Below are positions 3,324-15,708 of a DNA stretch of 24,000 bases, piece after piece. The translations under genes and the position numbers were made by a program. Numbering within the stretch: position 1 is the first letter of the stretch; each line of letters opens with the position of its first letter. A model generated the notes under the pieces. It searched no databases. It saw only the letters and a list, made by a program, of their open reading frames with translations, and was not told the origin of the DNA. Origin of the DNA: Patescibacteria group bacterium (GTDB taxonomy: Bacteria; Patescibacteriota; Minisyncoccia; Phycocordibacterales; JADFSL01); the NCBI GenBank assembly GCA_022560785.1, contig JADFSL010000003.1:6738-30737 (forward strand), in the 5' to 3' direction.

Positions 3324-3809
3324 TCAGTTCTTTATTCGTTTGAACGAACCGTATGTTCTTCCTCCGTAAGTACCCTCGAGCTCATTGTCGACAAGGCGAT
3401 AAGTAACAAGGATCCCGTTGCGGAGTTTAAAAGAAAGTTCATCTTCTTTTATTTTCCCCGAGAAACGACCATATGAACCTCTACGCAAATTCCACGGGGG
3501 ATATACACCGGTGCTGTAAATCACCTTCGCTCTACCGTTGGCTTTCACCCGCGTTACAACGAGCGTGTGACAAAGACCTCCTCGTATGCCATCTTCCCAC
3601 ATACCAATCCATACACCAGAAAAGTTAGCCACCTCTTTTGGTACGTTCGAAGCCGGGGCTTTGATCTTGTATTTGGGAAGAGGTGATTCCCCAAGACAAT
3701 CGTTTCCATCGCTACCGGCCAGTGCGACATTCGTACTTCCTGCCAGGAAAATGAAAATTGTAAACAGCGATGCAGCCACTTTCAAAACAGACATTTTGAG
3801 CTTGTACAT
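3324..3809 (-). CDS. Secreted hypothetical protein (signal peptide)
   Basis: ATG at 3809 is preceded by AAGGAG (3822-3817) with 7-nt spacing. Signal-like N-terminus MYKLKMSVLKVAASLFTIFIFLAGSTNVALA. Visibly GC-richer than its neighbours. The longer ORF to 3851 is less likely. Confidence 0.7.
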   Translation of the reverse strand: MYKLKMSVLKVAASLFTIFIFLAGSTNVALAGSDGNDCLGESPLPKYKIKAPASNVPKEVANFSGVWIGMWEDGIRGGLCHTLVVTRVKANGRAKVIYSTGVYPPWNLRRGSYGRFSGKIKEDELSFKLRNGILVTYRLVDNELEGTYGGRTYGSFKRIKN

Positions 3810-4016: not shown

Positions 4017-4814
4017 GTGAAAAGTAAGAACGCAAAAATAATATTTTCTGTTCTGGGAGTACTTTCTATTATATCGGTTGGTTTTTACTACTACAGAGCG
4101 GAAATCAGTTTATATGCTTGGAATAATTACCATATATTTCCTCAAATGGTGATGGCATTCAACGAAGATGCAACACTTGCTCTTGAGGTTGGAAATTATT
4201 ATTTTAATGTATACAGTAACGGTGTATATGATTTGAAAAAAGCGGAATACCATTTTGAGAGAGCGCTTATGTTGGATTTATATGTAAAAGATGCATGGCA
4301 TCAACTTGCAAGAATAGATTTTCTTGAGGGCAATTTTGATGGCGCCATTTTTAAAATAAATAAACAGATTGAATTACACAACGATGAACTTATGTCCTCA
4401 TACTATATTCGTGGACTTATTCTTGGCTATATGGGGCGATATGATGAGGCAGAAGAAAATTTTCTGTTATTTTTAGAGTGGGATCCAAAAAATTGGGCAA
4501 CACACACTGATTTAGCGTGGGTTTATTTTTCGGGTAGTGAATATCAAAAATCCGCTGATATAGCACGTGCGGGACTTTTCTACAGCCAAACCAACCCGTG
4601 GTTACTTAATATGCTTGGTGTGGCATTAATTAATACTGGAGAAATAGATGAAGCAAAAAAAATACTTGAATTTGCGCTTGAAAATGCAAATTTATTAACT
4701 GAAACTGATTGGCATAAAGCATATCCCGGCAATAATCCAAATATTGGCATACAAGGGCTTTCAGAGATGAAAGAAGCAATACAGTATAATATTACACTTA
4801 CTGTGAGTAATTAG
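4017..4814 (+). CDS. TPR-repeat protein with N-terminal membrane anchor
   Basis: GTG start. TM IIFSVLGVLSIISVGFYYY. TPR-like helical repeats (AEYHFERALMLD, YDEAEENFLLFLEWDPKN, IDEAKKILEFAL). Confidence 0.7.
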   Translation: MKSKNAKIIFSVLGVLSIISVGFYYYRAEISLYAWNNYHIFPQMVMAFNEDATLALEVGNYYFNVYSNGVYDLKKAEYHFERALMLDLYVKDAWHQLARIDFLEGNFDGAIFKINKQIELHNDELMSSYYIRGLILGYMGRYDEAEENFLLFLEWDPKNWATHTDLAWVYFSGSEYQKSADIARAGLFYSQTNPWLLNMLGVALINTGEIDEAKKILEFALENANLLTETDWHKAYPGNNPNIGIQGLSEMKEAIQYNITLTVSN

Positions 4815-4866
4815 CTGTTAGTAACTAGTATCTTGTATTTTTAGAATAAAGTATAATGAATATACT

Positions 4867-5970
4867 GTGAATATTTTTAGAAAAGATATATCTAAAATAG
4901 GTTTTGGCATATTATTTCTTGCTATTGTTGTAATATTTGGTGGCGGTTTTTCTGATTCAGGAATTCAAAACACTTCAGTTGAAGTTGGTGTTGCAACACT
5001 GTCTCCTTTAGGTCAAGCTGGTGGATTCGCTATTCCAGCTTCGTGTCCTTCATATGTTCATGTTGTGGGTGAATGTAATCCCATAGCGCGCATCTCTCAA
5101 GATAAGGGTACGACTGAACCGGGAGAATCTTTTGTTGTTTCTTGGAGTTCAACAAGAGCTAGCTCTTGCAAGGTGCAGCACATTTTACCTGACGGAACAT
5201 ACGACTATTATGTAACTGTTACTGAATGGTATGATTATAAAGCAGGCGAGACTATTACATCTGAAGTAACAGAGGATTATTGGGCAACAGGCTTGAGTGG
5301 ATCAAAAATCACCGTACCAACTGAACTTGGAACACATAGATATAAAAATACGTGCACCAACTCTCTGGGATCAAATACTGCCTCCATAAACCACACTGTA
5401 GCCTTACCTCCGCAATGCTCGGATGGTATAGACAATGATAGCGACGGCCTTACTGATTTGGCTGACCCTAGTTGTAGCGGATCATCTGATAACGATGAGT
5501 CAAATCCAGCACAGTGCTCAGATGGAATTGACAATGATGGCGACGGTTTTGTTGATTTGGCTGACCCAGGTTGTATTTCGTCTGGTGACAATAATGAGTT
5601 TAATATTTTCCCACAATGCTCAGATCGTATAGACAACGATGGGGACGGTCTCATTGATTTGGCTGACCCCGGATGTACTGATCCTAGCGATAATAACGAA
5701 ACAGCTCCACCAGCGTCTCTGAGCTTAGAAGCAAGTCCTATTAATCTGATACGCTCCGGGACAGGAACCATAATCGTTTGGTCTGCAACAGATGTAATCA
5801 GCTGTACCATATCAGGTCCAAATGGGTTTAACTTCACCACTACAAGCGGGTCACAATCAACAGGCCCTCTCACCGAGCAGAGCACATACACACTCTCATG
5901 TGAAACAGACACTGGTCCCGTAAGTGTTGGAGTCACAGTAAATGTCCTGCCGGTATTTGAAGAGATTTAA
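4867..5970 (+). CDS. Secreted/anchored protein with three Cys/Asp-rich repeats (CSDGIDNDxDGxxDLADPxC) flanked by Ig-like beta regions
   Basis: GTG start, N-terminal TM/signal (IGFGILFLAIVVIFGGG), and three tandem 33-34-aa repeats. The antisense ORF 5277..5936 is judged an artefact. Confidence 0.7.
   Translation: MNIFRKDISKIGFGILFLAIVVIFGGGFSDSGIQNTSVEVGVATLSPLGQAGGFAIPASCPSYVHVVGECNPIARISQDKGTTEPGESFVVSWSSTRASSCKVQHILPDGTYDYYVTVTEWYDYKAGETITSEVTEDYWATGLSGSKITVPTELGTHRYKNTCTNSLGSNTASINHTVALPPQCSDGIDNDSDGLTDLADPSCSGSSDNDESNPAQCSDGIDNDGDGFVDLADPGCISSGDNNEFNIFPQCSDRIDNDGDGLIDLADPGCTDPSDNNETAPPASLSLEASPINLIRSGTGTIIVWSATDVISCTISGPNGFNFTTTSGSQSTGPLTEQSTYTLSCETDTGPVSVGVTVNVLPVFEEI
5413..5712 (+). 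repeat. 3 x ~100-bp in-frame tandem coding repeat
   Basis: Unit starts (QCSD) at 5413, 5512 and 5614. Conserved block gatttggctgaccc in each unit. Confidence 0.75.
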
Positions 5971-5979
5971 TTAGGATTT

Positions 5980-6474
5980 TTAAAAACCAAACAGCTCTAA
6001 AATTTTATGCGAGAGAGGTTCGTTGTGCTCCTTCTCTTCTAAATATTTGTTTATGTAGTCGTGAATCGCTTGGCAGTCCGCATCCGCGAGAGGGATGATA
6101 AGGTATGGCATAAAAACTTTCTTTGATTTTATAATCAGTTTTGGATCAATATTCTTGTATTCATCGCTTATCCAGAACGAATCAAGTGTTTTGTACGGAT
6201 ACAGCGTATCTCCTATGACCACACCTCTTTCATTGATTTTAAACTGAATTAAATCAGGATGCCGATTTGCAAACAATGCGAGTGTAAATGAACCTATAAC
6301 GATAAGCACTCCAAAGAGAATATTGCTGAGCATAAATGCCGCTATAGTCCCTGCGAGCGCAACAATACCGAGCGCCCAAAACCAATCCACAGTTCTTTCT
6401 TTGTGTTCGTATTCAAATGCATTCCATTGTATCGGAGGTCTTTGCATGTTTGTTTTATCTATGAGACCTTGCAC
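5980..6474 (-). CDS. Hypothetical two-TM membrane protein with soluble C-terminal domain
   Basis: 164-aa ORF. TM pair WFWALGIVALAGTIAAFML / LFGVLIVIGSFTLALF. Alternative start ATG at 6447 (MQRPPIQW). Confidence 0.6.
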   Translation of the reverse strand: MQGLIDKTNMQRPPIQWNAFEYEHKERTVDWFWALGIVALAGTIAAFMLSNILFGVLIVIGSFTLALFANRHPDLIQFKINERGVVIGDTLYPYKTLDSFWISDEYKNIDPKLIIKSKKVFMPYLIIPLADADCQAIHDYINKYLEEKEHNEPLSHKILELFGF

Positions 6475-10607: not shown

Positions 10608-10681
10608 CTCCCCGTGGCTCAATTGGATAGAGCGGCTCCCTTCTAAGGAGCAGGTTGCAGGTTCGAGTCCTGCCGGGGAGA
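10608..10681 (+). tRNA. tRNA-Arg (anticodon UCU), no encoded CCA
   Basis: Acceptor CTCCCCG/CGGGGAG, D-arm GCTC..GAGC, anticodon arm GCTCC-CTTCTAA-GGAGC, T-arm GCAGG-TTCGAGT-CCTGC, discriminator A. Confidence 0.9.
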
Positions 10682-10816
10682 CAAATATGGTTTCCGCCAA
10701 AGGCGGACCCGCCTTTGGTGGGCGATTCCTGCCGTGGGTACAAACAATTGCAGGCCTGCCCTCCAAAATTTTGCAAAGCAAAACTTAGGAGGGTGAAAGT
10801 CCCGCTGGGGGAGACA
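10682..10816 (+). other. Two tandem short elements, each ending in a decayed copy of the tRNA-Arg 3' end
   Basis: tRNA 3' end tcctgccggggagacaa (10668-10684). Copy b is tcctgccgtgggtacaa (10727-10743). Copy d is tcccgctgggggagaca (10800-10816). Hairpins at 10697-10718 and 10759-10793. Confidence 0.5.
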
Positions 10817-13848: not shown

Positions 13849-13932
13849 GCCCAGGTGGTGAAATTGGTAGACACGCTACCTTGAGGGGGTAGTGGGGGCA
13901 ACCCCGTGCTGGTTCAACTCCAGTCCTGGGCA
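13849..13932 (+). tRNA. tRNA-Leu (anticodon GAG), no encoded CCA
   Basis: Acceptor GCCCAGG/CCTGGGC, anticodon arm CTACC-TTGAGGG-GGTAG, long variable arm TGGGGGCAACCCCGT, T-arm GCTGG-TTCAACT-CCAGT, discriminator A. Confidence 0.9.
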
Positions 13933-14131
13933 CAAATACAAATAGATACTGCTGTGTGGCAGTATTTACTTATATTTTTGTGGACTGGAGTTGAACTGGA
14001 AGGGGGTCGGGGGAACATATGTTCCCCCGTGGAGGAAAACAGATCGCAGAATGCGGTCGTTAGAAACAGTGAGTTTCTAAGGCGCAACGAATGAAATGAG
14101 TGAGCAGTGAAATTTCCAGTCCTGGGCACAA
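13933..14131 (+). other. tRNA-Leu 3'-flank structured element bounded by a 17-nt direct repeat of the tRNA 3' end
   Basis: DR tccagtcctgggcacaa at 13919-13935 and 14115-14131. Anti-T-arm segment 13982-13996. Hairpins 13946-13965, 14009-14028, 14042-14058 and 14061-14079. Core shared with the tRNA-His element. Confidence 0.6.
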
Positions 14132-15452: not shown

Positions 15453-15525
15453 GGTGGCTGTAGCTCAGCGGTAGAGCCCTCGGTTGTGGTCCGAGTGGTC
15501 GTCGGTTCGAATCCGATCAGCCACC
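15453..15525 (+). tRNA. tRNA-His (anticodon GUG) with encoded G-1, no encoded CCA
   Basis: G-1 plus acceptor GTGGCTG/CAGCCAC, discriminator C, anticodon arm CTCGG-TTGTGGT-CCGAG, T-arm GTCGG-TTCGAAT-CCGAT. Confidence 0.9.
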
Positions 15526-15708
15526 CAAGATAATATAAAAATAGCATGTGCCATTTTTATATTGACTCTGTGTGTAGTGTGTTCGGATTCGAACACGAAA
15601 GGGGTCTGGGAAACAGTTGTTTCCCCGTGGCGGAATTATTCAAACCGAGGGGTTTGAAAGCGCAGCGAACAAAGTGAGCGAGCAGTGAGTATTCCGATCA
15701 GCCACCCA
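15526..15708 (+). other. tRNA-His 3'-flank structured element bounded by a 16-nt direct repeat of the tRNA 3' end
   Basis: DR tccgatcagccaccca at 15512-15527 and 15693-15708. AT hairpin 15532-15563. Anti-T-arm segment 15583-15594. Hairpins 15608-15625 and 15639-15658. Core blocks are shared with the tRNA-Leu element. Confidence 0.6.

Follow-up and report, generated by a model that had tools for sequence, protein, structure and literature searches.

A family of small structured cassettes at the 3′ ends of tRNA genes in Patescibacteria

A 24 000-nucleotide (nt) stretch of contig JADFSL010000003.1 from a Patescibacteria group bacterium (the window; coordinates are positions in this 24-kb window unless another locus is named) carries a cassette of about 180 bases behind its tRNA-His gene. 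This cassette belongs to a real, recurrent and structured family, designated type A and apparently undescribed before, in which a core of about 100 nt is kept and the tRNA-matching ends are exchanged. Its members are best explained as very small (about 180–200 bp), protein-less cassettes located at the 3′ ends of tRNA genes in Patescibacteria (Paceibacteria). Tentatively, they are read here as non-autonomous integrative cassettes which enter the tRNA 3′ end by Campbell-type recombination, with an enzyme supplied in trans.

Organization of the cassettes behind tRNA-His and tRNA-Leu

Five tRNA genes were detected in the window with ARAGORN and Rfam, among them tRNA-Leu(GAG) (13849–13933) and tRNA-His(GTG). 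The tRNA-His gene is intact (15454–15526, plus strand, with G-1 at 15453; Rfam tRNA score 64.9 bits). As the initial annotation had claimed, its 3′ part, TCCGATCAGCCACCCA (15512–15527), recurs as a direct repeat at 15693–15708, also on the plus strand. In standard tRNA numbering, the repeat runs from T60 in the T-loop to the CA that follows discriminator C73 (nt 60–73 plus CA). Exact repeats of 16–17 nt with these bounds were found at both the His and the Leu locus, and the proximal tRNA is intact.

The tRNA-His gene is followed by an AT-rich, near-perfect palindrome (15532–15563), seen by inverted-repeat analysis and in the predicted fold. The hairpin that had been noted there was measured as two 15-nt arms (15532–15546 and 15549–15563) which are 93% complementary and 2 nt apart, with GCATGTGC at the centre. 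It resembles a terminator whichever way it is read, and a longer imperfect palindrome, extending from the 3′ half of the tRNA to an inverted copy of it, is centred on it. This inverted copy (15580–15594, plus strand) corresponds to nt 53–67 of tRNA-His, i.e. the T-loop, the 3′ strand of the T-stem and the start of the acceptor, and pairs with 15505–15519 over 15 nt at 93%. The 12/12 complementarity to the T-arm that had been proposed for 15583–15594 is therefore correct and extends to this length. Its TCGGA is able to pair with TCCGA of the distal tRNA copy (helix 1).

The core comes next, on the plus strand. It comprises a conserved purine-rich joining strand, ACGAAAGGGGT (15595–15605, from pattern match and alignments); hairpin P1, CTGGGAAAC / GTTTCCCCG with loop AGTT (15606–15627, helix 2); a second conserved joining strand, TGGCGGAATTA (15628–15638, from pattern match and alignment); hairpin P2, TTCAAACC / GGTTTGAA with loop GAGG (15639–15658, helix 3); and block 2, AGCGCAGCGAA-N6-GAGCGAGCAGTGAG-TAT (15659–15692), the most conserved stretch in alignments across copies. 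Both hairpins covary. The end of block 2, GTGAGTAT (15685–15692), is a degenerate T-loop in which G53 T54 are followed by GA replacing T55 C56; the equivalent in the Leu cassette is GTGAAATT. Position 57 tracked the host tRNA in 10 out of 10 copies, being A in the two copies behind a tRNA with A57 and G in the other eight. Given this degenerate T-loop and the behaviour of position 57, the distal tRNA copy truly starts at nt 53.

The sister cassette behind tRNA-Leu (13934–14131, plus strand) scored 69.5 bits with the covariance model described below. It consists of a palindrome (13943–13968), an inverted T-arm (13982–13996), a core with one hairpin more than the His core and a distal repeat (14115–14131). 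It faces the 3′ end of a convergent gene; there is thus nothing downstream for it to regulate, and it is not a cis-regulator. The shared block 1 of the two cassettes was recovered as a 39-nt pattern at 13999–14037 and 15597–15635, for which no chance match was expected from dinucleotide shuffles. Blocks 1 and 2 aligned at 78% and 72% between Leu and His. The compensatory G-C to A-T change, the differing loop and the wholly exchanged second hairpin described in the initial annotation were all seen.

A recurrent family behind different tRNA genes

Further tRNA-linked copies were sought by scanning public collections with a block-2 pattern (related loci are denoted by L numbers). The scan returned one copy in a metagenome-assembled genome (MAG; L001), seven further independent copies on metagenome contigs and four chance matches in coding DNA. 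The type-A family now counts 11 copies at 10 distinct loci, on Patescibacteria contigs. Ten of the copies lie behind a tRNA gene. The host is tRNA-Ser(CGA) in L001, tRNA-Leu(CAA) in L002, tRNA-Gly(UCC) in L004, tRNA-Glu(CUC) in L006 (= L009), tRNA-Glu(UUC) in L007, tRNA-Arg(CCG) in L012 and tRNA-Asp(GUC) in L013. The remaining copy, L003, has no host tRNA anywhere in the 12–15 kb at hand; when the locus was extended upstream, neither a tRNA nor an integrase was met before the contig end at 4.5 kb. The hosts of the whole family (His, Leu-gag, Leu-caa, Ser, Gly, Glu-ctc, Glu-ttc, Arg and Asp) were counted as eight isoacceptors.

The order of parts was the same in all type-A copies: palindrome, inverted T-loop/T-stem ending in GAAC, GGGAAGGGGTC, P1, GTGGNGGAA, P2, GCGCAGCGAA-N6-GAGYGAGCAGTGAR, and a tRNA copy from about nt 60. 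The His copy in the window fits this definition motif by motif. The idea of a kept core with tRNA-specific ends, first drawn from the His and Leu cassettes, was borne out, as the same core stands behind eight further tRNA genes (seven further isoacceptors) with its own modules at each. At every tRNA-linked copy, the tRNA-matching ends were exchanged to suit the host. By homologues of its adenosyltransferase gene, which neighbours the cassettes, the window was assigned to Patescibacteria/Paceibacterota. In L014, a 97%-identical relative, the His cassette of the window recurs with two base changes, and one of these restores a P1 base pair.

Comparison with Rfam at the gathering threshold gave only tRNA in the window, so that no known family beyond tRNA accounts for the core; nothing relevant was obtained up to E=10 for any Rfam family, ribozymes, T-box, transfer-messenger RNA and group I/II introns included. 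Weak microRNA-like matches were a product of the long hairpin formed by the T-arm, the palindrome and the inverted arm. The other core types in L018 and L020, described below, gave nothing relevant up to E=1. No description of such tRNA-3′-end cassettes was found in the literature.

Folding and covariation of the core

The hairpin covariation proposed from the His and Leu copies was examined with a covariance model seeded on the two His copies, which was used to search 141 kb of related loci. The model recovered all 11 type-A copies at 43–175 bits and nothing else. The 171.8 bits of the window His copy are high by construction, this being a seed sequence; the nine non-seed copies scored 43–97 bits. 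MAFFT alignments (A2–A4) put the hairpins out of register, and the model-based alignment was therefore used. In this alignment, three helices covary: standard pairs filled 95.9% of the helix cells compared with 74.5% in shuffles, and 17 out of 22 helix pairs were changed on both sides. The observed values were reached in none of 500 shuffles. These figures come from an alignment that was itself fitted to the structure, and covariation in helix 1 is built in, since both of its arms are tRNA-derived. In helix 2 (P1), seven of the nine pairs were changed on both sides; in helix 3 (P2), six of eight were changed and pairing was 100%. The covariation signal collapsed in a control in which the partners were slid by 1–3 columns.

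P1 and P2 were also tabulated by hand, and their top strand showed 178 Watson–Crick, seven G.U and no A.C pairs. The two hairpins are thus convincingly backed by covariation, and the presence of G.U without A.C indicates that the top strand folds, as RNA or as single-stranded DNA. The purine-rich joining strands show almost no variation. Across genomes, about 45 unpaired positions are conserved, and so are the core blocks, at 80–90%. GNRA-type loops were present in several type-A copies.

The inverted arm and the long palindrome

The reverse complement of the downstream DNA was aligned to the tRNA 3′ end. The inverted repeat is continuous, with gaps, from the AT hairpin outward via the trailer and the acceptor end into the T-arm. 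In L018 and L021, a small hairpin is set between the anti-acceptor and anti-T-stem parts. The AT hairpins have arms of 15–20 bp, with centres of 2 nt in the window His cassette and 4–6 nt in most others. Compared with ordinary terminators, they have greater length and AT content, yet they would stop transcription in both directions. A promoter scan of the window found none between the palindrome and the inverted arm or core.

Mismatches between the inverted arm and the tRNA were distributed as 12 wobble-compatible, nine A.C and 24 transversions. There is no wobble bias, so an RNA reading of the arm is not forced. The inverted arm of L012 is a perfect 10-bp complement of the distal copy and not of the adjacent tRNA, from which it follows that the two tRNA-derived arms belong together. 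The reverse is seen in L006, where the inverted arm fits the adjacent tRNA rather than the distal copy. In L003, L006, L007 and L012, the 5′ arm is also able to pair with the acceptor strand.

Empty sites, other cores and arrays

Relatives, L015–L021 among them, were fetched solely via the adenosyltransferase gene. In L015, whose cobalamin adenosyltransferase is 83% identical, the tRNA-Leu gene is followed by 6 nt and then by the terminator of an efflux gene, without a cassette, and the repeat sequence, CA included, is present in a single copy. The tRNA-Leu site being empty in L015, the cassette is an insertion. Comparison of the tRNA-His loci of relatives, which carry other tRNA-His alleles, showed the site empty in L019 and L021 and occupied in L016, L017, L018 and L020.

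The same architecture with unrelated cores, including tandem arrays, was common behind the tRNA-Leu and tRNA-His genes of relatives. In type B, the core ends with AACTTGACCCCG and the repeat starts from C56; it was found at tRNA-His in L016, L017 and L020, at tRNA-Leu(UAG) in L021 and at tRNA-Ser(GGA) in L001. In type C, the core ends with ACAGAATCTGTAAGA and the repeat starts from T54; this type was found downstream of tRNA-Leu in both L018 and L020. Behind its tRNA-His, L018 carries an array (4717–6043 of that locus) in which at least four units with differing cores stand in tandem. The distal units of the array are more decayed, the distal unit being a roughly 70% diverged copy of the second one, with the same palindrome included. 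One unit of this array holds a 91-amino-acid zinc-ribbon-like open reading frame (ORF). Overall, a copy of the tRNA 3′ part was found within 600 nt downstream of 12 of 31 tRNAs and upstream of none of the 31; in the loci picked only via the adenosyltransferase gene, the downstream count was 6 of 13.

Several other arrangements around tRNA genes were observed. In the window, tRNA-Arg(TCT) (10608–10682) is a third tRNA with a 3′-end duplication: sequence comparison revealed diverged copies of its own 3′ part on the plus strand (10723–10816), at 10723–10744 (82%) and as GGGGAGACA at 10808–10816. They are split by palindromes (10694–10721 and 10759–10793) and follow the same general pattern without a type-A core. 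In L015 (1411–1518), the same place after the adenosyltransferase gene is taken by a very different tRNA-His, which has an encoded CCA and the unusual T-loop TGCAAAT; 11 nt further on, the window-type tRNA-His is represented by a fragment that begins at G53 and continues to the 3′ end. The tRNA-His gene of L015 itself seems to have been replaced. In L007 (about 5150–5270), a decayed 5′ tRNA-Glu fragment (GGCCCTATCGTC…TAGTCTGGTCTAG), broken by a 20-nt GC palindrome, was found about 110 nt upstream of the intact tRNA-Glu (5269–5345).

Trailers were also noted. Both tRNA-Ser genes of the L001 MAG have a conserved trailer, CCTCGCAGARGCTCGGCT…GACACAGTC.GCAA (3450–3513 and 4480–4540, minus strand), which directly follows tRNA-Ser(CGA) and stands after the distal repeat at tRNA-Ser(GGA). 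Another conserved trailer, rich in purines (…ATGTCGCACGGAG.G.AGCGAGTACG…, or GTGAGACGGAGCGCGAC), occurs in L016 (3515–3600), L019 (1756–1900) and L020 (646–760). It is situated after the terminator of a tRNA-Leu or tRNA-Arg, with no obvious tRNA 3′ repeat, and shares a GAGCGAG-like motif with type A.

Neighbouring genes and candidate relatives

The neighbours of the cassettes are ordinary housekeeping genes. Genes of a diversity-generating retroelement (bAvd plus reverse transcriptase) were found in L016 (5849–7256), L017 (2322–3729) and L021 (7446–8552), 1.5–3 kb downstream of tRNA-His; the L021 site is empty, and no link of these genes to the cassettes was found.

L029, a GC-rich actinophage-like viral contig, was considered as a relative. 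Over a stretch of 27 nt, which overlaps the start of its tyrosine integrase gene, it resembles type-A block 2, and its attP-like region (1540–1740) contains GAATAGAACCG five times as well as two tRNA 3′-end copies arranged as an inverted pair. The covariance model gave no match in this contig and the resemblance was treated as a coincidence.

On the contig of the tRNA-less L003 copy, a region designated L030 contains a 115-nt direct repeat (238–352 and 4489–4603, 84%) flanking a 4.25-kb segment with four genes, including one for a PIN_12/DUF4935 protein. The repeat comprises a sigma-70-like promoter (TTGACC, 18 nt, TAAAAT) and a stretch of about 40 nt which can be folded like a minimal acceptor plus T-arm. 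Its second copy lies just upstream of the L003 type-A cassette.

Origin of the cassettes

The Campbell-type reading rests on the flanking repeat, the regenerated tRNA, the terminator supplied by the element, the empty sites and the distal position of older units. The data establish that the cassettes are insertions, how they are built, that the top strand folds with covariation and that they have spread over many tRNAs and into arrays; a circular intermediate, the crossover point, the type of enzyme and the DNA or RNA nature of the folded molecule are inferred. The excised form would be a circle bearing, in order, a tRNA copy (from the T-loop to just past the 3′ end), the AT-rich palindrome, the inverted copy and the core of about 100 nt with two hairpins. 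The tRNA-like segment of this circle would undergo site-specific recombination with the resident tRNA gene, the crossover presumably falling within nt 60–76, under the action of a recombinase supplied in trans. The tRNA would stay intact, the cassette palindrome would become its terminator and a second tRNA 3′ copy would be left at the far end. In a single strand, the tRNA copy and the inverted copy could fold back into a duplex mimicking the target site. The core, as single-stranded DNA or RNA, might serve as a scaffold or accessory site, or it may be cargo.

A number of observations weigh against integration by this route. Integrase, transposase and reverse transcriptase genes were found neither in the 24-kb window nor by the other copies (Pfam; phmmer with the L029 integrase). 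No autonomous relative was detected in viral, phage or plasmid collections: scans of viral contigs gave no matches or chance matches only, and BLAST against phages and plasmids gave none. No excised circle or junction was observed, and strain would make a double-stranded circle of 180 bp a poor substrate. At the distal junction, the left half is the constant GCAGTGAG, which bears no resemblance to a T-stem; a symmetric integrase core of the classical type is therefore not apparent. The distal copies in L006, L002 and L013 differ from the adjacent tRNA, and a native-looking tRNA trailer stands between the tRNA and the cassette in L001; simple Campbell insertion therefore fails to explain every locus. 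Lastly, the single-stranded core blocks are so strongly conserved as to suggest that they function as more than passive cargo.

The cassette might instead encode a structured small RNA, whose 5′ inverted arm and 3′ tRNA copy would form a tRNA-like acceptor/T-stem helix or two guides, one per strand of the tRNA gene, directing a recombinase or other enzyme in trans to that gene by programmable base pairing, in the manner of a bridge RNA. We consider this unlikely. The core folds on the top strand, with the G.U and A.C counts given above and GNRA-type loops in several copies; its helices are backed by covariation and its unpaired positions are conserved. One segment of the element is complementary to the target top strand and one is identical to it, the 5′ arm can pair with the acceptor strand too in four loci, and the L003 copy has the sigma-70-like promoter upstream on the same strand. 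However, the window showed no detectable promoter from the palindrome to the arm, the terminator-like palindrome there would stop read-through, the inverted-arm mismatches have no wobble bias, and no recombinase gene is associated. The 16-nt flanking repeat is unlike the product of IS110-type recombination, and a guide to nt 53–67 would match the restored tRNA as well. A related proposal goes further: the paired tRNA modules of protein-less, programmable cassettes would, as a folded single strand or as an RNA, set the target purely by nucleic-acid pairing and recruit a general, sequence-independent recombinase in trans. The word programmable, used in the initial annotation, suits the pattern well, but the mechanism that it implies is improbable. 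The swapped modules could equally be copied from the target at insertion or exchanged by recombination at the universal T-loop.

Mobility machinery would be dispensable if fold-back or template-switch duplication occurred at the tRNA 3′ end and the cores then passed from one tRNA locus to another through recombination or gene conversion, natural transformation being one possible prelude, at the universal T-loop microhomology found on either side of the core (…TTCGAAC / GTGAR…). One long imperfect palindrome does span the 3′ half of the tRNA, the AT hairpin and the inverted arm, as an inverted duplication would give, and every junction falls in the T-loop, at nt 53–60. Core-less duplications behind the window tRNA-Arg, the differing tRNA-His of L015 followed by a window-type fragment from G53 and the 5′ tRNA-Glu fragment upstream of the gene in L007 point the same way. 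This combination is nevertheless improbable: the type-A core has the same bounds in all 11 copies, drawn from several genomes and eight isoacceptors, and the level of conservation of the core blocks points to selection, or to transfer that is both efficient and precise, and not to occasional errors. The same constancy bears on the suggestion that the cassettes are scars of larger prophages or islands at tRNA genes which lost their interior, so that two attachment-site arms were fused. A flanking repeat of the classical T-loop-to-3′-end type, the ORF in one L018 array unit and the 4.25-kb segment adjoining L003 with its 115-bp repeats would suit such scars. Eleven copies at different tRNAs would not acquire one and the same internal junction by independent deletions, no gene remnants are present and the hairpins show compensatory evolution; an origin as scars is thus very unlikely. 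The micro-protein that the initial annotation offered as an alternative, a 43-codon frame from an ATG at 15546, has next to no likelihood left. The frame is open in the His copy, but neither the frame, the start nor the stop is conserved across copies, which effectively refutes it. The frame and stop supposedly common to both cassettes did not hold up, since the long Leu ORF (13906–14094) is in another frame and ends at a TGA 5 nt upstream of the His stop. The open stretch varies from 5 to 82 codons across ten copies, the start codon is missing in four and the stop in one (L003), the hairpin insertions are not multiples of three, and the most conserved bases come after the stop.

Comparison with known systems

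Many tRNA-targeting integrases use an attachment site running from the T-loop to the 3′ end. Among tRNA-gene-targeting elements, a T-loop sublocation class, made up of tyrosine-integrase prophages and genomic islands, was reportedly described by Williams in 2002. The cassettes share with tyrosine-integrase elements the flanking repeat from the T-loop to past the 3′ end, the regenerated tRNA, the empty sites and the tandem accumulation. They are 100 times smaller, with neither an integrase nor any other gene, and differ by bearing an inverted target copy and a structured core; a single core occurs with eight isoacceptors, and a single tRNA with several cores.

In integron attC sites and in the attachment site of the CTX phage, single-strand folding rebuilds a target-like duplex. 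Like attC and the Xer-dependent CTX attP, the cassettes are tiny, promoterless and protein-less, contain an imperfect palindrome that can be folded in one strand and form arrays with younger-looking proximal units. Their target is a tRNA gene rather than attI or dif. The R boxes of attC (RYYYAAC ... GTTRRRY) are not matched, the T-loop GTTCGAA / TTCGAAC misfitting RRR/YYY, and no IntI-like gene was seen. In the CTX type, two inverted target-like sites fold into a mimic of the chromosomal site, on which a host recombinase acts; the inverted and direct tRNA copies of the cassettes are able to pair and might form such a site.

With the bridge RNA or seekRNA of IS110/IS1111 elements, the cassettes have in common a structured, non-coding segment of about 130–180 nt borne by the element, with one stretch complementary and one identical to the target. 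They differ by the absence of a DEDD-type recombinase gene and by a 16–17-nt repeat instead of a 2-nt core, and their RNA and its two-loop form are only putative. Casposons also insert at the 3′ end of tRNA genes with a target duplication of about 14–17 bp; the cassettes, at about 200 bp, have no casposase (Cas1-type integrase) or family B polymerase and their ends are not mutual inverted repeats. Miniature inverted-repeat transposable elements and REPINs are likewise small, non-coding, hairpin-forming and mobilised in trans, as is proposed for the cassettes. The latter are distinguished by tRNA-derived, site-specific ends, strict linkage to tRNA 3′ ends and long target duplications.

Implications

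The cassettes are best classed among the tRNA-targeting integrative elements, as a new variant; pairing-based targeting is an interesting possibility. In the relatives sampled, about half of the tRNA-Leu and tRNA-His genes are followed by cassettes, which provide the tRNA with its terminator, build up into arrays and are wholly missed by annotation pipelines. If mobile, they would be among the smallest site-specific integrative units known, and would show how a selfish or semi-selfish element can colonise many tRNA genes by swapping two short target-derived modules around a constant core. Were they programmable, they would represent a new class of guide-directed integration, whose guide could be redirected to any tRNA, perhaps even to any sequence. 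If targeting depends on pairing, the cassettes would offer a natural template for retargetable DNA insertion.

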